From: an uncultured Bacillales bacterium
Lineage (GTDB): Bacteria; Bacillota_I; Bacilli_A; RFN20; CAG-826
Reading direction: 5' to 3'
NCBI GenBank assembly: GCA_946622925.1
Contig: CAMOQM010000001.1
Span: 1 to 34,927 of the forward strand
DNA: 34,927 nt
The notes beneath the pieces are model-generated. The model had not been told where the DNA came from and searched no databases. It saw only the letters and a list, made by a program, of their open reading frames with translations. Each line of letters opens with the position of its first letter. The first letter of the stretch is position 1. The translations under genes were made by a program, and so were the position numbers. Below are positions 1,262-14,809 of this stretch, piece after piece.

Positions 1262-3088
1262 ATGAAAAAGACTGTGCTTTGGTTTGTGGCGTTTATATTT
1301 CCGCTTTTATTTGGATGCTCTTCGAATGAATCTTCTGAGCCTGCTACGATAGTTTCTGTGGAAGGAGCGGAATTTAATGAAGAAGCAAAGAGCATCTGGC
1401 TTCTTGTCAATTCTAATCAAGGAGTTTCGTTGAATAATCTCATTAAGGTTTCTATCAATTCATCATGGCGATTATTTAAGGAAAAAACAGAATTATTTGA
1501 CAGGAACGTTTATAGTTCCGAACTCGAAGACGGAAACAACGCTTTTTCTATTGTTGTAGCTTCGCATGATGGACGATTTGAAAATACTTATAGTTTAATT
1601 ATTCATCGGTCTTTTCAAGCTTGGATTTCTTATGAATTTGAAGGCCAAAAGTTAGGGATGCAAAATGTCTTTACTGGCTTTAAGTTTAGCCTTCCGGGCT
1701 CCTATTATATTGAAGGCCATACGTTTTTATATTGGTGTTATGAAGGAAAAAGGGTAAATACCATTGTGCCTTTGGGCGATATCGCCGTGCAAGCTTTTGC
1801 ACCGGCAAATGATTATACTGTTGTGCTTAATCCGAATTTTGAAGGATGCCACGCGGATGCCATAACAATAAAGTATGGAGACAACTATTCATTACCATTT
1901 TTAGAAAGGCGTGGATATGAGTTTTTAGGATGGTTCCGTGACGATTCCTCTATTTCTTTTCCAATTTCCGGGATATGGAATTATGGAAATGGACTGACTT
2001 TAAATGCAAAATGGGAGCCGTTTTCTTATGCCATTTCTTATGCGCTAAATGGCGGGACGAATAATCCCGAAAATCCAAACTCATATACCGTTGAAAACAG
2101 GGCGGTGCTTGCTGAACCTACATGTAAATTTAAAACTTTCGATGGTTGGTATCTGGACGGTAAGAGAATTCGATTCATCCCAGAAGGAACAACTGGCGAA
2201 ATAAAATTAGAGGCGCTTTGGTCGCAAAATGACGTTCAGAAAGCCGAAGAAGAAGCCGCAAAGGTTGACAGAGAAAAACGCTTGGGAATCAGACCGGTTT
2301 TTTCCGACGATGGGAAAACCGTTACGTATGGCCTTTATCCTCAAAAACGCATCTGTGATGAAAAAACCATCGCTTCTTTGGAGGCTTTGCGAACGCCGCA
2401 CGAGCTTTATGAGGGTGAAAATGAATTTGTTTTTTTTGATGGCAATTACTATGTAGTTTTAAATATAAATTTTCGAGGATTGGGCGGAACTGTTTATTGG
2501 GAAGATGGATCGGAGTCTGGGCGATACGATTTCGCTAGCCACAAAGGGAACCTTGAATGGTTTATTTGCGAACCAATAAAGTGGATGGTATTGTCCAACT
2601 TTAATGGCGAGCTCTTTGTTGTATCGGAACGCATTCTAGACGCCTCTGTGTGGAATAATGTTCAAGTGTACAGTGGGGGCTATGAATTGTCTTATCTTAG
2701 ACTGTGGCTCAACGGATTCTATGAATCGGCTTTTAAGCTAGGAGACGATTACTCTTTGATTACTGAAGTAAACAACGGCCGAGGCGGAAGCGTTGACGAT
2801 AGAGTGTTTGTACTAAGTTCAAAGGATTTAAAGGATTATTTTACTGATAAAGAATCTAGGTGCGCCCAGACAACCGACTGGGCCAGAGCCAGAAAAACAA
2901 ACTATCAAAGGGCCAACTTCTTGGGAGATTATTGGGCCAGGTCCATATATAGTTATGAAGGTAGAGCCTATTCTTTGTCTGGGGAAGCGGTCGTTTATTC
3001 TTCGGGGAATATTGGAGAGGGTAATGGATCTCTCAATGACTGGTCTATGGGTGTTAGGCCGGCCATGCGAATTAGAATTGACAAATAG
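1262..3088 (+). CDS. Surface lipoprotein with Listeria-Bacteroides-type (Flg_new-like) repeats and a C-terminal DUF6273-like domain
   Basis: Signal peptide with lipobox MKKTVLWFVAFIFPLLFGC. Repeat signatures: GHTFLYWCYEGKRV, GYEFLGWFRDD, FDGWYLDGKRI. The C-terminal DYWARS...SMGVRPAMRI resembles the YWLRS...GVRPA signature of DUF6273. Confidence 0.65.
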   Translation: MKKTVLWFVAFIFPLLFGCSSNESSEPATIVSVEGAEFNEEAKSIWLLVNSNQGVSLNNLIKVSINSSWRLFKEKTELFDRNVYSSELEDGNNAFSIVVASHDGRFENTYSLIIHRSFQAWISYEFEGQKLGMQNVFTGFKFSLPGSYYIEGHTFLYWCYEGKRVNTIVPLGDIAVQAFAPANDYTVVLNPNFEGCHADAITIKYGDNYSLPFLERRGYEFLGWFRDDSSISFPISGIWNYGNGLTLNAKWEPFSYAISYALNGGTNNPENPNSYTVENRAVLAEPTCKFKTFDGWYLDGKRIRFIPEGTTGEIKLEALWSQNDVQKAEEEAAKVDREKRLGIRPVFSDDGKTVTYGLYPQKRICDEKTIASLEALRTPHELYEGENEFVFFDGNYYVVLNINFRGLGGTVYWEDGSESGRYDFASHKGNLEWFICEPIKWMVLSNFNGELFVVSERILDASVWNNVQVYSGGYELSYLRLWLNGFYESAFKLGDDYSLITEVNNGRGGSVDDRVFVLSSKDLKDYFTDKESRCAQTTDWARARKTNYQRANFLGDYWARSIYSYEGRAYSLSGEAVVYSSGNIGEGNGSLNDWSMGVRPAMRIRIDK

Positions 3089-3164: not shown

Positions 3165-4061
3165 GTGACACTTTATTTGATTGGCAATGGCTTCGACAGG
3201 TATCATGGTTTGCCGACCTTATATAAGGATTATGGTAGTTTTCTTTGTGGTGACGATCATGATAGATTCAATTGTTATTCTTTCGTTCGTGACGATGAAA
3301 AGGTTTGTTCTAGGGACCAGTTCATGAATTTTAAAAGTGATACCTGGGAACGCCTTGAAGACGCATTAAACATAGATATCAAAGAGCTTATGATTCAAAC
3401 GTTGGATGGTAGAAACGGGCTTGCCTGCGACGATATCAGTTTATATTTGGATTTCACTGGTAAACACTTGCGAGACTGGATTAATTCCATATCCGTTTCG
3501 GACGTTAAAAAGCAATTAGATTTTCTACCCAATTCTCTATTCATTACATTTAATTACACGCTAGTTTTAGAAGAAGTTTATAAAATAGCTGATGAAAGAA
3601 TCCTCCACGTTCACGGCAAAAAAGGCGACAAAATCCTTCAATTCGGAAATATGGAGTTTATGGCTTATGGAAATGACAAAGCAGAACAAATCATTTTTGA
3701 ATATATGCGGGCTAACCCAAGTATCGAATGCTCCGTTAAAGAAGCCCATGAATATTTATATTATGTCAAGGAGGCGTTTGGAAAAGACCCCAAATCAAAT
3801 TACTCGGCCATAAATCGTTTTCTTTCAAATAAGCAAATAGATTCAATTATTGTTTTAGGGCTTTCTTTGTCAAAACAAGATCAACCATATTTTACCGACA
3901 TTTTTATTCCAAAATTCGGCAATAAAAAATGGGTTGTGTCTTATTATGGGTCAGACGACTTAAAAAAGAAGAAGTCATTTTGTAAAGGAACCGGCCTAAA
4001 GTGCAGCTTTAAGACACTGGAAGAGGCTACGCAATGCCCGGGTACAGGTTGCCTGGAATAG
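3165..4061 (+). CDS. abiH: AbiH-family abortive-infection-like protein
   Basis: GTG start after AGAGAGGG. The N-terminus MTLYLIGNGFDRYHGLPTLYKDYGSFL matches the hallmark IGNGFD..HGL.T.Y.DF N-terminal motif of AbiH (PF14253). Internal ILHVHGKKGDKILQFGN also fits the family. Confidence 0.75.
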   Translation: MTLYLIGNGFDRYHGLPTLYKDYGSFLCGDDHDRFNCYSFVRDDEKVCSRDQFMNFKSDTWERLEDALNIDIKELMIQTLDGRNGLACDDISLYLDFTGKHLRDWINSISVSDVKKQLDFLPNSLFITFNYTLVLEEVYKIADERILHVHGKKGDKILQFGNMEFMAYGNDKAEQIIFEYMRANPSIECSVKEAHEYLYYVKEAFGKDPKSNYSAINRFLSNKQIDSIIVLGLSLSKQDQPYFTDIFIPKFGNKKWVVSYYGSDDLKKKKSFCKGTGLKCSFKTLEEATQCPGTGCLE

Positions 4062-4125
4062 TTGCTTTTTCTGATGCAAACTAGTGGTCTTCATGTTGTG
4101 TCTCCTTGGTCGCCTATTATTGTTG

Positions 4126-4764
4126 TTATTGTAGTAAATCCACTATTGAACAGCCTAAAGCTTTGGATAGTTTTTTAAGAGTATCTACGCTGGCCTTGTT
4201 TATATCTTTATGCCTTTGCTCATACATTTGGATTGAGCGTAGATTGACGCCAGATAAAGCGGCTAATTCAGATTGGGAACAACCATATAATGTTCGGATG
4301 CGTTTTAGATTTGTTTCGCCTTGGTCTTCTTTGATTTTGCTATTGGCGATGTCTACGAATTTGGTAATGTCGGCTTCGTGAAGGGTGTAATAAAGTCTGA
4401 CCAATTCATCATATGGCAGGGCTTTGAAGATCCTAGCAAATCCGCAGTCGGCGATGAATTGGTAATAGGCAACGGCATAGCCGATCCAATATTCCTTTGA
4501 GCGGGAATAGTTTACCTTTGGTTCGACATTTATATCCTTATCGGTAGTTTCTTTGATTATATCGATGGCTAACTCTATTCCACTTTTGCCTTTGATAATG
4601 GCGACATCGGCTAGTTCTAGGCGTTTGCAAAAGCTGCTGACTAGGAAAAGATCAACGAAATCTTTCCCCGGCATGCCTAAAGAATTGACCGCGTAATCAA
4701 AAGCCTCGCCTAGCAGGCGCTGAGCTCTATTTCGATTTATTCCTTGGTAATCTTGGATCGTCAT
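4126..4764 (-). CDS. Partner protein of the DUF3990-like gene: N-terminal DUF3791-like region plus C-terminal XRE-type helix-turn-helix
   Basis: The C-terminal NLKRIRTLYGCSQSELAALSGVNLRSIQMYEQRHKDINKASVDTLKKLSKALGCSIVDLL is a textbook HTH_3/XRE domain. The N-terminal ~150 aa aligns with ORF 11867..12352 (KEYWIGYAVAYYQF vs EAMFWLGYIYRYISY; LPYDELVRLYYTLHEAD vs LPAKTLIKDYYVYHTQD). It overlaps the upstream gene by 38 nt. The DUF3791 name is from memory of the usual DUF3990 neighbour and is unverified. Confidence 0.7.
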   Translation of the reverse strand: MTIQDYQGINRNRAQRLLGEAFDYAVNSLGMPGKDFVDLFLVSSFCKRLELADVAIIKGKSGIELAIDIIKETTDKDINVEPKVNYSRSKEYWIGYAVAYYQFIADCGFARIFKALPYDELVRLYYTLHEADITKFVDIANSKIKEDQGETNLKRIRTLYGCSQSELAALSGVNLRSIQMYEQRHKDINKASVDTLKKLSKALGCSIVDLLQ

Positions 4765-5419
4765 TGGTGATTTTGTTCCCGATTATATTCTGAATATATA
4801 ACCCATCCTCTTCTTGCTCGAGGATATCCATATAAGCTTGATTGGCGGAATCATCCCTTCCTTTCCTAAGGATGTAATAGATGCTTTTATCGGCCGGTTC
4901 GGCCCCTTCGAAATGTATTTTGGAGAATGCGTATTCACTTTTGATTACGATTTGCTCGCCTAATTTCCCTAATTCCATGGCCTTGGAAAGTTGCTCCACC
5001 GTTATCGTGTTGTTTATGAAAGCCTCGGCATAATCGAAATATGAATCGTCGGCTCGATATCCAACGATTATGTCATAGGCATTTACGTTTATTCCGAAAT
5101 GTTCGCTCAGGTAGGCTTTTGCCCTTTTGGCACCTGGGTTATTAATATCGAATAAACGATGGTCGAGCAAAACGGCTATCCAATTGAGAATCGAGTAAGT
5201 GGGGGTGTTTAGATAGAGGATATTCAAACCTTCAGTTTCAAGGGTATAACGATTGGCAAAGCCATTGCTTAAGGATGAGATGGCCCACTCTTTCGCTAGT
5301 TCCTTGTTTTCGGTGCAATAAAAGCCAAGCCCGAAATCATTATGCTTTCGGCCAAGCCCAAAAACGGGCTTTTCGATGATTTTGCTGGAACCATGATAGA
5401 TGGTGATTTGTTTATTCAT
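4727..5419 (-). CDS. DUF3990-like protein (candidate effector/toxin)
   Basis: ITIYHGSSKIIEKPVFGLGRKHNDFGLGFYCTENKELAKEWA fits my recollection of the DUF3990 signature. It is clearly paralogous to aa ~79-284 of ORF 11016..11870 (YHGS/FHGS; GLGFY/GPGFY; IIVGYRADDSYF/IIAPIADNRMF; LGEQIVIKS/LGHQYVLKS). Confidence 0.7.
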   Translation of the reverse strand: MNKQITIYHGSSKIIEKPVFGLGRKHNDFGLGFYCTENKELAKEWAISSLSNGFANRYTLETEGLNILYLNTPTYSILNWIAVLLDHRLFDINNPGAKRAKAYLSEHFGINVNAYDIIVGYRADDSYFDYAEAFINNTITVEQLSKAMELGKLGEQIVIKSEYAFSKIHFEGAEPADKSIYYILRKGRDDSANQAYMDILEQEEDGLYIQNIIGNKITNDDPRLPRNKSK

Positions 5420-5439
5420 TTATACCTTCTTTCAGCAAT

Positions 5440-5467
5440 ACTATATCACTAGAGTGACATAGTTCAA
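5440..5467 (-). promoter_or_regulatory. Promoter with embedded inverted-repeat operator for the DUF3990-like operon
   Basis: On the minus strand: TTGAAC (plus 5462-5467), 16-nt spacer, TATAGT (plus 5440-5445). The imperfect inverted repeat CTATATCAC-taga-GTGACATAG (5441-5462, 1 mismatch) fills the spacer and overlaps the -10. An AAGAAGG RBS lies 5 nt before the ATG at 5419. Confidence 0.5.
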
Positions 5468-5576
5468 TTAGGTGCCTTGGTTTTTGCGTAAACAAAGCTT
5501 TTAGCTTTGCCAAAATTAATTGCCACTTTTGCCTTTTTAATCCGTATAAGTTAGTAGGGAGACCATAACAAAAAGA

Positions 5577-5609
5577 TGTGTACAAAATACACACACTCTA
5601 ACCTATAAT
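5577..5609 (+). promoter_or_regulatory. Promoter/operator of the DUF1778-GNAT TA pair
   Basis: Perfect inverted repeat TGTGTA-caaaa-TACACA (5577-5593) lies over the -35 position. TATAAT is at 5604-5609, GGAGG at 5616-5620 and ATG at 5628. Confidence 0.5.
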
Positions 5610-5627
5610 TGGTTTGGAGGTAGCGTT

Positions 5628-5900
5628 ATGGCAACCAAAAAGAAAGGATGTAGAGTGGATATTAGAATCTCAGAAAGCGACAAAGCCCTTTTGTACAAGG
5701 CCGCTGAAATAAGAAGACAAAGCCTAAGTTCCTATATCATTGGTGCCGCTACCAAGGCCGCGGAGAATGATATAGCCAACGAAAATATCATTTGGGTATC
5801 AGAAGAAGGTATGAAACGGATTGTTTCCATGATGGAAAATCCTCCTGAACCAAATGAAACTCTTAAGGAGTTAATGCGTGGAAATCATCTCGATAAATGA
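5628..5900 (+). CDS. DUF1778 (TacA-like, RHH) type II antitoxin
   Basis: 90 aa, with RVDIRISESDKALLYKAAEIRRQSLSSYIIGAA typical of DUF1778 antitoxins. It overlaps the downstream GNAT gene by 23 nt. Confidence 0.8.
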   Translation: MATKKKGCRVDIRISESDKALLYKAAEIRRQSLSSYIIGAATKAAENDIANENIIWVSEEGMKRIVSMMENPPEPNETLKELMRGNHLDK

Positions 5901-6381
5901 ATTTTCGGACAAAAAACAGTTTTTGGATTTTGACTGTGGCGAGCCGGCCTTGAATACATATTTAAGGAAATATGCCACCCAAAACGAAAGGACTGGGTAC
6001 GGCCGAACTTTTTTGGCTCTAGAAAACGGAAGGCTGATTGGCTTTTATACTCTTGTCGTGAGTTCGATGCAAAGAGATGGGCTCCAAACCAATCTGATCA
6101 AAAGATTGCCAAAATATCCAGTCCCTTGCATTTTAATAGCCAGACTTGCCGTCAATAAATCTGACCAAAAAAGGAAAGTCGGAAAGCAAATGCTATTTGA
6201 TGCTTTGAGAAAAGCCGTGCATATAGCGGATTATTGTGGAGTGGCTATGGTGGCGGTTGAATCTAAACCGGGAGCCGTCGAGTTTTACAAAGCTGCTGGC
6301 TTCGAATCGATAACCGATAACGGTTTGGTTTTCGCAATCCATATTAATGCGATTATCTCCGCCTTAGCAGGACAAAAATAG
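5878..6381 (+). CDS. GNAT-family acetyltransferase toxin (TacT-like)
   Basis: GTG start 7 nt after AAGGAG. FDCGEPALNTYLRKYATQNERTGYGRTFLAL...GFYTL and ILIARLAVNKSDQKRKVGKQMLFDAL match the TacT/GNAT toxin pattern. It is paired with DUF1778. Confidence 0.8.
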   Translation: MEIISINEFSDKKQFLDFDCGEPALNTYLRKYATQNERTGYGRTFLALENGRLIGFYTLVVSSMQRDGLQTNLIKRLPKYPVPCILIARLAVNKSDQKRKVGKQMLFDALRKAVHIADYCGVAMVAVESKPGAVEFYKAAGFESITDNGLVFAIHINAIISALAGQK

Positions 6382-9720: not shown

Positions 9721-10914
9721 ATGGCAAAAGAAAAATTCAATCGTGATCGCGTCCACGTTAACGTCGGCACCATCGGCCACGTCGACCACGGCAAGACCAC
9801 CCTCACCTCTGGCATCACCCACGTCCTCGCGATGAAGGGTCTAGCCAAAGATATGGCTTACGCCAACATAGACGCCACCCCTGAAGAAAGGGCTCGTGGT
9901 ATCACCATCAACTCCGCCCACGTCGAGTATGCGACCGAAAAGCGTCACTACGCCCACGTCGACTGCCCGGGCCACGCCGACTACATCAAGAACATGATCA
10001 CCGGCGCTGCTCAAATGGATGCCGCTATCCTCGTCGTCGCTGCCACTGATGGTGTTATGCCCCAGACCCGTGAGCACGTCTTGCTCGCCCGTCAGGTCGG
10101 CGTTCCTCAGATCATCGTCTTCCTCAACAAGTGCGACATGGTCGATGACCCCGAACTCATTGATCTCGTCGAAATGGACGTCCGTGATCTACTCAACTCC
10201 TACGAATTCCCTGGCGATGACACCCCCGTCATCCGCGGTTCTGCCTTAAAGGCCTGCGAAGCCAAGGACCTCAATGACCCCGCTTGCAAGTGCATCGAAG
10301 AGCTCATGGAAGCCCTCGATACCTACATCCCCGACCCCGTCCGTGACGATGCCAAGCCCTTCCTTCTCCCGATCGAAGACGTCATGACCATCTCTGGTCG
10401 TGGCACCGTTGTCACCGGCCGTGTCGAACGTGGTGTCATCAAAATCAACGACGAAGCTGAAATCGTCGGTATCCGTCCCACCCAAAAGACTGTCGTCACT
10501 GGTCTTGAAATGTTCCGTAAGACCCTTGACTTCGCTCAAGGCGGCGACAACATCGGTGCCCTTCTCCGTGGTATCACCCATGACCAGGTCGAACGTGGCC
10601 AAGTCCTCGCCAAACCCGGCTCCATCGTCCCCCACGACAAGTTCACCGCTACCACCTATATCTTGAAGAAAGAAGAAGGTGGACGTCATACCCACTTCTT
10701 AAACGGCTATCGTCCTCAATTCTTCTTCCGTACCACCGACATCACCGGTACCATCACCCTACCTGCTGGCACCGACATGGTCATGCCTGGTGACAACGTT
10801 ACCTTCACCGTCGAGCTCATCCACCCGATCGCCATGGAAAAGGGAACCAAGTTCTCCATCCGTGAAGGTGGCCGCACCGTTGGCGCTGGCACCGTTGCCG
10901 ACATTCTTCACTAA
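9721..10914 (+). CDS. tuf: Elongation factor Tu
   Basis: 397 aa with [26 protein letters not shown]. Confidence 0.98.
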
Positions 10915-10934: not shown

Positions 10935-10960
10935 AGCCTCGCTATATGCGGGGCTTTTTC
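10935..10960 (+). terminator. Rho-independent terminator of the str operon
   Basis: AGCCTCGC (10935-10942) / GCGGGGCT (10948-10955) with one G-U pair, loop TATAT, then TTTTT (10956-10960). Confidence 0.7.
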
Positions 10961-10974
10961 GTTGCCTGCAAAAC

Positions 10975-11009
10975 TTGGTATACCAAATTTGGTATGGTAA
11001 GTTTATAAT
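10975..11009 (+). promoter_or_regulatory. 12-bp perfect palindrome plus extra half-site and -10 box upstream of the HTH-DUF3990 gene
   Basis: TTGGTATACCAA (10975-10986) is self-complementary. A third TTGGTAT half-site is at 10989-10995 and TATAAT at 11004-11009. The ATG at 11016 lies only 7 nt after the -10. Confidence 0.5.
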
Positions 11010-11015
11010 TGAGGC

Positions 11016-11870
11016 ATGGAACTAAAAAACTTCGATTTAAAAAGTGATCTACTGATTTTCATGGATTCCAATCAATATTCCATTGAAGATGTCTCCTTGG
11101 ATACCGGATTGCCCGTTTCCACAATCGAGAACATTTTGCTTGGTAAAGGCGGTGCATCGCCTTTGATTTTGGAATGCTGTTACCAATGTTTCCATAAAAG
11201 GGGCCTGGCCTTAAATTCTGCCAAAGAGGAAATTTGGTTGGAAAATTATGGGAAGACCTTGCTTTTTCATGGTTCGAAGGACGGCTTGACTTCTATCACC
11301 CCAAATGGATCTAGATCGGATTGCGATTTAGGCCCAGGGTTTTACCTTGGGGAATCTTATCAAACGGTCGGTTTGTTCGTATATCAATACCCCAGTAGTT
11401 CAGTTTATCCGTTTTTGTTAGATGAAAGCGAGCTAAAAATAGAAAAATTAGATTGTGACCTTTCTTGGATGATTGCCGTGGCTTATTATCGAAGCAAAAT
11501 CAAAGAATTTGGCAATCACAATATGGTTAAAAAGGTTTTGGACCGCTTTGTGGGGGCCGATGTTATCATTGCTCCCATCGCCGATAATCGAATGTTCTAC
11601 GTCATGCGCCAATTCACGGAGGGCGAAATCACCGATTTAGAAGCTTTGCATTGTTTGTCCGCTTCGGGGCTAGGCCATCAATATGTTCTAAAAAGCCAAA
11701 AAGCCATCGACCACTTAACTAGTTTGGACCGCCTCTATATCTGTAGCGCCGAACGGGAACTATTTGATAGGAATGCCATGGAAAGAAGCAAGGTTATCGA
11801 TGCCAAACTTAAATTGGCAAAACGAGAATTCCGGGGCCAAGGCAACTATATTGAGGATATTTTTGGATGA
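11016..11870 (+). CDS. Fusion protein: N-terminal HTH-like domain plus DUF3990-like domain
   Basis: aa ~10-60 (LLIFMDSNQYSIEDVSLDTGLPVSTIENILLGK) looks like an XRE-type HTH. aa ~79-284 are paralogous to ORF 4727..5419 (LLFHGSKDG...DLGPGFYLGES...VIIAPIADNRMFY...LGHQYVLKS). Confidence 0.7.
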   Translation: MELKNFDLKSDLLIFMDSNQYSIEDVSLDTGLPVSTIENILLGKGGASPLILECCYQCFHKRGLALNSAKEEIWLENYGKTLLFHGSKDGLTSITPNGSRSDCDLGPGFYLGESYQTVGLFVYQYPSSSVYPFLLDESELKIEKLDCDLSWMIAVAYYRSKIKEFGNHNMVKKVLDRFVGADVIIAPIADNRMFYVMRQFTEGEITDLEALHCLSASGLGHQYVLKSQKAIDHLTSLDRLYICSAERELFDRNAMERSKVIDAKLKLAKREFRGQGNYIEDIFG

Positions 11871-12352
11871 AAGAGTTAGACGGCAACGGTTTGCACCTAT
11901 GCAAATATCAAGGTGAAATATTCGGAGAATCGACGGAACGATTAAAATGCTCCAGTTTGGTTTTTTGCCGAAGATTCCAAAAATCCAAGCTAGCCAGATT
12001 ACTAGATTATGGCTGATATAGCCTTTCCCTGGATGTCGATGAGGCTTTTCAAATGCTTTCTTCCCAATTCGGGGAATCGGATTATGGCAAAGACAAATAC
12101 CCATCCGAAGCCATGTTTTGGCTTGGCTATATTTATCGCTATATCTCCTATACCAGGGAGTGTCCCACTAAGTTGGTGCTTAAATTGCTTCCGGCCAAAA
12201 CCTTGATTAAGGATTACTATGTTTACCACACCCAGGATGAGGAGTGGTGCCTTAGGTCGTGGTGCGAAAGGTTTGGGCTTAGCAACGACGACTTCGACAA
12301 AAAAGCCCGTTTAAAGAGATTGCTGCTAGCCCGTTATGCGTCATTTCTTTAA
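11867..12352 (+). pseudogene. Partner (DUF3791-like) gene interrupted by a single in-frame TGA at 12014-12016
   Basis: The ATG at 11867 overlaps the upstream stop (ATGA). The frame reads MKELDGNGLHLCKYQGEIFGESTERLKCSSLVFCRRFQKSKLARLLDYG-TGA-YSLSLDVDEAFQMLSSQFGESDYGKDKYPSEAMFWLGYIYRYISY... to TAA at 12350-12352. Both halves align along the N-terminal region of ORF 4126..4764. Confidence 0.65.
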
Positions 12353-14146: not shown

Positions 14147-14809
14147 ATGGAAATCATCAAATCCGAAAAAGGTAAACTAACCATCCTTACCGGCAAAACC
14201 GATATGGGAAAGTCGACTTTGACCGTTTATGACGCGACCGAATATCTTAAACAAGGTTCCAGCGTCATCTTCTTTTCCTATGAATATTGCCAGTCCATCA
14301 TCGTCAATAAGATGGTCTCCCATTTCGGGGTCAATTGGTCGACCTTATTACGCATGAACATCGTCGATGCCTCTAACTTAGGTTTATCTATGTTAGAAGA
14401 TATGGTCAGGGCCAAAAAAGGCAGCGTCGATGTCGTTTATATCGATTACCTCGACTTATTAAAGAAGGCCACCTATGGCGAAAACGAGGATGAAGAAGCT
14501 GAACTCAAGCATATTCAATCCATCGTCTCTGATTTGGCCGCTTTAGCCGATGAGATGGGCATTGCCATCGTCTTATTATCCCAAGTCGGGTCTTCTAGTG
14601 ACTTCGAACGCAGCATCGCTAGGCTCAATGATTTCTCCGCCAAAGTCAAAGGCGGCAATGTCATTAAGATGTTTATCGGCAAAGGCAACGTCATCGATGC
14701 CCGTATCCAATATGATGACATCGTCCACGTTATCTTGGTCGATGGCTATGACCTCCGCCATTTCTCCTCCATCAACATCAAAGAAGTCTATAAGGCCGAT
14801 AATAAATAA
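14147..14809 (+). CDS. RecA-fold ATPase resembling the C-terminal domain of DnaB helicase, lacking the DnaB N-terminal domain
   Basis: Walker A LTGKTDMGKST, Walker B-like VDVVYIDYLDLL, and IQSIVSDLAALADEMGIAIVLLSQV parallel the DnaB C-domain motifs. Only 220 aa. Confidence 0.55.
   Translation: MEIIKSEKGKLTILTGKTDMGKSTLTVYDATEYLKQGSSVIFFSYEYCQSIIVNKMVSHFGVNWSTLLRMNIVDASNLGLSMLEDMVRAKKGSVDVVYIDYLDLLKKATYGENEDEEAELKHIQSIVSDLAALADEMGIAIVLLSQVGSSSDFERSIARLNDFSAKVKGGNVIKMFIGKGNVIDARIQYDDIVHVILVDGYDLRHFSSINIKEVYKADNK

Follow-up and report, generated by a model that had tools for sequence, protein, structure and literature searches.

The question raised by positions 10,975–12,352 of contig CAMOQM010000001.1 (assembly GCA_946622925.1, from an uncultured Bacillales bacterium) is whether the two overlapping genes found there form a single functional unit, and of what kind. 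The whole stretch analyzed, 34,927 nucleotides, is referred to as the window. The first gene encodes a DUF3990 protein and the second a small partner protein; this pair is called module 2 (type B), while a related pair at 4126–5419 is called module 1 (type A). A preliminary description had proposed that both modules combine the same components, with a helix-turn-helix (HTH) domain on the partner in module 1 and on the DUF3990 protein in module 2. That interpretation is supported in substance, and the locus belongs to a widespread, uncharacterized two-gene family. An N-terminal region that did not model as an HTH, or loci without significant profile-profile similarity, would have refuted it; both checks were made, and neither outcome was observed. 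On balance, we favor an autoregulated cassette of the toxin–antitoxin (TA), abortive-infection or defense-candidate kind, with the HTH on an effector of ADP-ribosyltransferase (ART) fold.

Domain Composition of the DUF3990 Protein

The HTH-like domain reported at the N-terminus of the 284-aa DUF3990 protein was confirmed in a predicted structure as an XRE-type HTH of about residues 1–78. The AlphaFold2 (AF2) model, built on 102 homologues, had a predicted local distance difference test (pLDDT) value of 95.1 and a predicted template modeling (pTM) score of 0.90, and placed helices at residues 8–19, 23–30, 34–41, and 49–61 in the N-terminal domain; a linker helix and then a mixed alpha/beta domain come next. 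In Foldseek searches of the PDB, the N-terminal domain matched the XRE regulators and antitoxins SinR, C.AhdI, C.Esp1396I, DdrO, HigA, and GraA with probabilities of 0.97–1.00 and root-mean-square deviations of 1.5–3.7 Å over 53–75 residues, and the five-helix XRE fold with its helix 2-turn-helix 3 was present in the model. The accompanying E-values (0.03–0.3) were modest, as is usual when the domain is a small part of the query (284 aa here). The window copy alone matched none of the Pfam models HTH_3, HTH_19, and HTH_26, even at E ≤ 10; among its 102 relatives, HTH_3 was matched by 17 (best E 1.7e-6) and HTH_19 by 11, and the family profile matched CylR2 at E 0.02.

The remainder of the protein is dominated by the DUF3990 domain (PF13151), matched at residues 83–235 with E 4.4e-23 and a score of 82.1 bits (cutoff 32.2), and detected in all 102 relatives. 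The Pfam ART (ADP-ribosyl) clan includes DUF3990 together with DarT and RES (PMC7955679). An ART-type split beta-sheet fold was recognized in the AF2 model (pLDDT 95) with Foldseek, and its best PDB match other than HTH proteins was the PARP domain of tankyrase-2 (probability 0.90, E 0.055). Against viral models (BFVD), five matches were obtained at E ≤ 1e-3, the best at E 1.1e-8, and phage entries named “PolyVal ADP-ribosyltransferase” were found at E 1.3e-3 and 4e-3; the ART-PolyVal family was also matched weakly by 6 of the 102 relatives and by the DUF3990 protein of module 1. Three residues, H85 (in FHGS), Y110 (GFYLG), and D182 (ADVII), were invariant across the 102 sequences and are held by strands 82–87, 109–112, and 183–187 of the model. 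Judged by motif shape and strand position, without superposition, they are a candidate catalytic triad equivalent to the H-Y-E of PARPs. The same domain forms the C-terminal tip of Rhs effectors from type VI secretion systems (T6SS), where it is followed by presumed immunity genes (PMC4524185, PMC10763514, PMC12165300). The module 2 protein is accordingly discussed below as an effector, with toxicity and ADP-ribosyl transfer as its predicted properties.

Candidate Operator and Promoter

A 12-bp perfect palindrome, TTGGTATACCAA, with a third TTGGTAT half-site, had been put forward as an operator just upstream of the -10 box. These elements are present, and comparison of loci supports an operator at this place, although a larger one: a 34-bp imperfect dyad with arms AAACTTGGTATACCAAA and TTTGGTATGGTAAGTTT. 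Perfect 12-bp palindromes numbered 15 in the window, and simulated sequence gave 10.2 ± 3.0, so that TTGGTATACCAA alone is not exceptional, and its significance by itself was ruled out. By contrast, a threshold of at least 14 matching positions in 17-nt arms was passed in the window by the 34-bp dyad alone, and simulated windows held a mean of 0.09 such dyads. The 34-bp dyad begins 16 bases past the terminator of tuf. The third half-site was not kept in locus L001, whose protein is 78% identical.

Comparison across the family pointed in the same direction. A ∼33-bp palindrome, AAACTTGTTTGTnCA-N4-TGnACAAACAAGTTT, was represented by its arms CTTGTTTG/CAAACAAG just 5′ of TATAAT in 62 of 82 loci, and the window dyad occupies the position of this element. 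Proteins with the recognition helix [IV]SR[TS]TL were associated with the canonical AAACTTGTTTGTnCA-N4-TGnACAAACAAGTTT element; with divergent helices (LPVSTIENIL in the window, and those of L004, L006, L012, and L023) the outer AAACTT...AAGTTT arms were kept and the inner dyads differed. The inner arms thus co-vary with the recognition helix, as predicted for an HTH and its operator, and the 34-bp dyad is supported as the putative operator of the module 2 HTH.

The spacing between TATAAT and the ATG was 6 nt in 12 type-B loci (the window, L001–L004, L007, L012, L017, L023, L024, L066, and L073) and 7 nt in three Treponema loci, and no conserved Shine–Dalgarno sequence at a usable distance was seen in these short-spacing loci. 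Other type-B members mostly had a -10 box 20–30 nt upstream together with AGGAG. The 6-nt spacing suggests a leaderless mRNA that would start at A11016.

Partner Gene and Its In-Frame Stop

Module 2 was described as lying directly after the tuf terminator, with its genes overlapping by ATGA; both features were found, the terminator as a stem-loop with a T-run and the second reading frame as starting at 11867. What had been overlooked is that this partner frame is broken by a TGA at codon 50, leaving open reading frames (ORFs) of 49 aa (11867–12016) and 99 aa (12053–12352) under translation table 11. A GAGG at 12041–12044 lies 8 nt 5′ of the ATG at 12053, so the 99-aa C-terminal fragment could be translated separately; such a restart could yield the conserved core.

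Orthologous contigs (97–98% and 78–84% protein identity) carried GGA or GGC, both glycine, at codon 50 and an intact 161-aa partner. A contig from another metagenome, L088, differs from the window at one position in 2,460 bp, 12014, where it has G instead of T. With this single difference, the stop is either a nonsense mutation of very recent origin or an error of assembly. Recoding of the TGA was ruled out, given the glycine codons of the relatives and the intactness of all housekeeping ORFs under table 11. Two further 99-aa gene calls, P0169 and P0173, do not back a nonsense allele recurring in other samples: one is explained by L087, where the contig ends within the partner and codon 50 is GGA, and the other by L086:1-60, where unrelated sequence stands in place of the partner's first ∼52 codons. 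This replacement holds a consensus TTGACA-17-TATAAT promoter, with its junction within a few bases of the position of the window stop, and may have arisen by insertion, rearrangement or chimeric assembly. An independent in-frame stop of the partner (...GRENE*GPSEYG...) was present at 2476–3000 of L009, a metagenome-assembled genome (MAG) of a rumen Erysipelotrichaceae, beside an intact HTH-DUF3990 gene.

It could be argued from the window copy that the whole operon is being lost, the partner being a pseudogene and no function being readable from this copy. The TGA where relatives have glycine would fit, as would the public gene calls of the contig, which give the 99-aa fragment only. However, with one altered base in 2,460 relative to L088, decay would have to be extremely recent, or the stop an assembly or consensus error; moreover, no change is seen in gene 1, in the operator or in the -10 box, and the well-placed GAGG could restart the conserved core. 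We consider a decaying remnant improbable.

The AF2 model of an intact partner orthologue was all-alpha (pLDDT 90). Its fold had no PDB match in Foldseek (all E > 2.9), and the sequence matched no Pfam or NCBIfam family, with a best PDB sequence match at E 0.9. One partner homologue is labeled “antitoxin” by NCBI, a label whose basis could not be traced. Clustering at the 50% level left 728 representatives of the partner domain; about one third of the best of these (P0184–P0318) were C-terminally extended, 250–340 aa proteins. Among 44 long forms scanned, the C-terminal extension was GNAT in six and ASCH in two, the remainder being without a Pfam match; HTH fusions among these homologues nearest module 2 were sought and not found (0 of 44). 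The partner would be expected to neutralize the effector by binding it.

Two Modules With the HTH on Opposite Proteins

Module 1 had been described as carrying its HTH at the C-terminus of the partner, and module 2 as having a partner without one. Both statements held: an HTH_3 domain closes the 212-aa partner of module 1, next to a DUF3990 gene, and no HTH was found in the module 2 partner, whose orthologue is modeled as all-alpha. Both components are homologous between the modules. The read-through module 2 partner matched the 212-aa protein in BLASTP at E 8e-8, in an alignment that crosses the stop codon; a 47-sequence partner profile aligned to the module 1 partner in hhalign with a probability of 94.8% (E 4.8e-8, 109 columns), and the DUF3990 profile aligned to the module 1 DUF3990 protein with a probability of 97.4% (E 9.6e-12, 195 columns). 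The “divergent paralogous module” of the preliminary description is therefore borne out as to homology. The identity of 21–24% between the modules, however, indicates two separate families and not recent paralogues.

XRE-type HTHs do sit on opposite partners in the two modules. The two domains aligned with a probability of 87% (E 4e-6) at ∼8% identity; independent capture of XRE domains and relocation of one HTH are equally compatible with the sequences. The argument that two different fusions of the same components bespeak one functional unit was strengthened, since both fusions proved to be large, stable families with conserved gene order.

Module 1 also has a candidate operator of its own. 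Type-A loci carry a conserved dyad, ATCACTCTAGTGAT, across the extended -10, whose window counterpart lies at 5446–5457 and is kept as ATCACTCT[AG]GTGATA[TC]AAT in L089–L091. The genes of module 1 overlap by 38 nt (4727–4764), and weak matches to MqsA and HipB-type models were obtained in this module.

Table 1. Positions in the window of module 2, its upstream flank, and module 1.
Feature	Positions	Strand	Description	Basis
tuf	9721–10914		upstream neighbor of module 2	
tuf intrinsic terminator	10935–10955	+	8-bp stem with 6 G-C pairs, then T-run	terminator scan
Imperfect dyad, 34 bp, AAACTTGGTATACCAAA/TTTGGTATGGTAAGTTT	10971–11004	.	17-nt arms, 82% complementary (14/17); proposed HTH operator	
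Perfect palindrome, 12 bp, TTGGTATACCAA	10975–10986	.	inside the 34-bp dyad; kept in L001–L003	
Second perfect palindrome, ACCAAATTTGGT	10982–10993	.	overlaps TTGGTATACCAA	
Third TTGGTAT half-site	10989–10995	+	lies within the dyad's right arm	
-10 box, TATAAT	11004–11009	+	abuts the dyad; 6 nt 5′ of the ATG at 11016	
HTH-DUF3990 gene, 284 aa	11016–11870	+	intact; carries every family-invariant residue	
XRE-type HTH domain, residues ∼1–78	11016–11249	+	recognition helix at about residues 34–41	AF2, Foldseek, family Pfam matches, CylR2 match
DUF3990 domain, residues 83–235	11262–11720	+	ART-like fold	Pfam, Foldseek
Partner gene, 161 codons	11867–12352	+	all-alpha product without HTH; ATGA overlap with upstream gene; in-frame stop in the window	
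In-frame TGA, partner codon 50	12014–12016	+	G>T at 12014 turns GGA into TGA	
Residual ORF, 99 aa	12053–12352	+	conserved C-terminal core of the partner; the ORF in public gene calls of the contig	
Module 1 DUF3990 protein, 230 aa	4727–5419	-	without HTH	Pfam E 1.4e-43; PADLOC PDC-M42A E 1.1e-40
Module 1 partner, 212 aa	4126–4764	-	partner domain 1–∼145 and C-terminal HTH_3 153–210	HTH_3 E 8.7e-11
Module 1 candidate operator, TCACTCTAGTGA	5446–5457	-	abuts and overlaps extended -10 (TGATATAGT; TATAGT 5440–5445)	

Distribution and Genomic Context

Proteins of type B (HTH-DUF3990 of ∼283 aa with a partner of ∼159 aa) formed 512 clusters at E ≤ 1e-3, and the pair was found in at least 486 species genomes, mostly of gut and rumen Firmicutes with some Treponema and Bacteroidales MAGs. 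Among the GTDB species-genome matches listed, none exceeded 47% identity to the type-B query of the window. A downstream partner was present in 79 of the 84 type-B loci analyzed, with the 4-nt ATGA overlap in 71 of these 79; the five loci without an intact partner were three contig ends, L009, and the window. The flanks were heterogeneous, with 157 Pfam families among 128 flanking ORFs and none in more than four loci. Such unrelated neighbors imply that the pair behaves as an autonomous cassette, and its patchy spread across phyla indicates horizontal transfer.

Type A (DUF3990 of ∼230 aa with a partner-HTH of ∼213 aa) gave 4,591 matches, some of them perhaps through the HTH alone. The sampled type-A loci L089–L092 matched the window in gene order and in the 38-nt overlap, and this overlap length was constant across distant genomes (3001–3038 in both L089 and L091). 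On the Lactobacillus crispatus plasmid NZ_CP047143.1 (L093:2486-3249), a minimal DUF3990 gene of 162 aa is followed, with a 1-nt overlap, by a hypothetical gene of 91 aa. Neither gene has an annotated HTH, and the pair may represent a third architecture of the DUF3990 family.

In the window, module 2 is flanked by tuf and pfk; the terminator sequence of tuf is unchanged in L001–L003, and no known RNA element was found in the region. Module 1 lies between an AbiH-family gene (3165–4061, E 2.1e-36) and a TacA/GNAT pair (5628–6381), just 5′ of rpsL. Both modules had a G+C content of ∼0.40–0.44, against 0.51–0.57 in the ribosomal-protein and elongation-factor operon. The islet of conflict genes around module 1 (3165–6381), which includes a divergent TacA-like antitoxin gene (5628–5900) and a GNAT toxin-like gene (5878–6381), had a G+C content of ∼0.37–0.43 against 0.51–0.57 for the adjacent str operon. 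On the 3′ side of pfk, a 220-aa ORF (14147–14809) matched DnaB_C, AAA_25, and RecA-like P-loop models; it is shorter than any replicative helicase should be and occupies the same position in L001.

Proposed Mechanism and Alternatives

In the reading that we favor, gene 1 would produce an ART-fold DUF3990 effector bearing its own XRE-type HTH, and gene 2, translationally coupled through the ATGA, a small all-alpha protein that would bind the effector and hold it inactive. The HTH, probably as a dimer, would occupy the 34-bp dyad abutting the -10 box and repress the operon. If the partner were lost or titrated, for example during phage infection or stress, the effector would be freed and could use NAD+ to modify a cellular target. 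Module 1 would represent the sister form, its HTH being carried by the partner as in systems of the MqsRA or HigBA type, and the window copy, with its one-base nonsense change, would be a cassette that is freshly damaged, mis-assembled, or running on a split partner. The position of DUF3990 at the tips of Rhs effectors, the matches of both modules to the models of the PADLOC candidate system PDC-M42, and the placement of module 1 beside AbiH and TacA/GNAT genes are all consistent with this reading.

Several observations weigh against it. The most serious misfit with a simple TA model is the broken partner beside an intact effector: in the window and in L009 the putative antitoxin is interrupted by a nonsense codon while the putative toxin keeps its invariant residues, which is unexpected if the partner is indispensable, unless the stops are assembly errors or the C-terminal fragment suffices. 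Both are MAG contigs, so that sequence errors are possible at both stops. In addition, the order tuf-module-pfk recurs in a relative of 78% identity, a synteny that fits vertical inheritance equally well as an addiction module, and a search for carriage on mobile elements yielded no phage match and two plasmid matches, both weak. The promoter scan upstream of 11016 called no canonical sigma-70 promoter and gave no convincing -35 box. The literature search found no activity assay of any DUF3990 protein, the toxicity of Rhs-DUF3990 included. Finally, the PADLOC matches of module 2 were weak (PDC-M42A at E 9.8e-11, PDC-M42B at 8.2e-5), and PDC-M42 consists of three genes, whereas type-B loci have no conserved third gene beside the pair.

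Some of these observations would suit a non-toxic regulator, an explanation that we regard as unlikely. The HTH-DUF3990 protein would then be a transcription factor, with an ART-like domain that either serves as a sensor for a ligand (NAD+ or ADP-ribose, for example) or modifies itself; the partner would act as a co-regulator or anti-repressor, and the role would be physiological and not one in conflict. The HTH and its conserved operator are indeed the best-supported functional elements of the locus, and the pTM of the AF2 model suggests a rigid HTH-ART unit. Loss of the partner by nonsense with gene 1 intact, as well as the stable tuf-pfk synteny, could also be accommodated. Yet a single operator was seen at each locus, at the promoter of the cassette itself, and no target gene is conserved among the diverse neighbors. 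The occurrence of the same domain at the tip of Rhs effectors, the location of related cassettes inside defense loci, and the patchy cross-phylum distribution, which indicates horizontal spread, also speak against a purely regulatory role.

Type B might also follow a logic distinct from that of ordinary TA pairs, although this seems quite unlikely. The toxin itself would be a DNA-bound autorepressor on the 34-bp operator, and a trigger sensed by the all-alpha partner would release the toxin or activate it where it sits. Its ART domain would target DNA or the transcription machinery at or near the tether; nonsense-tolerant partner alleles would then imply that neutralization comes from tethering or autorepression, and not from the partner. 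Reversed roles, with the all-alpha partner as the toxic component and DUF3990 as an enzymatic antitoxin that modifies it in the manner of type VII systems, are very improbable: the fusions of the partner domain, in other lineages, to enzymatic or RNA-binding domains (GNAT or ASCH) and the harmlessness that partner loss would then have are in their favor, but DUF3990 is found at the toxin tip of Rhs effectors, the partner has no recognizable catalytic fold or PDB match, and the module 1 partner bears an HTH, as antitoxins usually do.

An autoregulated cassette with the HTH on the effector would have consequences beyond this locus. This cassette type alone brings DUF3990 into at least 486 species genomes from gut and rumen bacteria, and the domain also has a place at T6SS Rhs tips; if the effector is an ADP-ribosyltransferase toxin, the cassettes would constitute a new and widespread family of ART toxin–antitoxin or defense systems, and a clear case of a DNA-binding module carried by either partner of a TA pair. 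The contig offers both architectures side by side, with shared effector and partner domains, the HTH swapped, and a conserved operator for each, which amounts to a ready experimental design. The nonsense alleles, if real, would bear on whether neutralization requires the partner at all.

Comparison With Known Systems

The Rhs effectors of T6SS, such as Serratia Rhs5 and Enterobacter RhsA, share the Pfam domain at their C-terminus and are likewise followed by a small predicted immunity gene. They are, however, secreted polymorphic toxins of Gram-negative bacteria, unlike module 2.

Module 2 has the layout of type II TA systems, with two small, adjacent, co-oriented, and overlapping genes in an autonomous cassette. 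The DNA-binding domain, which type II systems carry on the antitoxin, is on the antitoxin candidate in module 1 but not in module 2, even though the operator is conserved. Among toxin-first type II systems, MqsRA and HigBA have the same layout as module 1, with the effector first and a partner bearing a C-terminal HTH_3, and a palindromic promoter operator is common to them and module 1; the fold of HigA and GraA, moreover, resembles the module 2 HTH. The differences are in the effector and in the placement of the HTH: the toxins of MqsRA and HigBA are RNases and not ART-fold proteins, their HTH is on the antitoxin whereas that of module 2 is on the putative toxin, and their toxin-binding domain is unrelated to the all-alpha partner, whose fold has no solved relative.

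TA systems with ART toxins include DarTG, ParST (Xre/RES), and CmdTAC. As is likewise predicted here, these combine an NAD+-using effector of the ART superfamily with a neutralizing partner. No match to DarT, RES, or macrodomain models was obtained in the module proteins, and the module 2 partner is neither a macrodomain protein like DarG nor an Xre protein like ParS. In the HipA family of kinase toxins (HipBST; the HTH-fused HipH/YjjJ), the HTH is carried by the antitoxin or fused to the N-terminus of the toxin, according to lineage. The HipA family thus offers a precedent for an HTH on either component of a TA pair, although by analogy only, its kinase fold being unrelated.

The closest catalogued relative, judged from the PADLOC profile matches, is PDC-M42. 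PDC systems are phage-defense candidates picked for being embedded in BREX, DISARM or type I restriction-modification loci; PDC-M42 is described as a three-gene cassette, FAM_00403>>FAM_03189>>FAM_00360, and its DUF3990 family recurs in PDC-M10 and PDC-M13 (Payne et al., 2024; bioRxiv 10.1101/2024.01.29.577857). A literature search for PDC-M42 or PF13151 found no paper discussing either, and none of the four proteins scanned matched PDC-M42C. Module 2 scored higher on PDC-M13B than on PDC-M42A, while module 1 matched PDC-M42B at E 2.4e-6 besides its strong PDC-M42A match. In both modules, the PDC-M42A and PDC-M42B matches fell in adjacent genes, in the order A then B.

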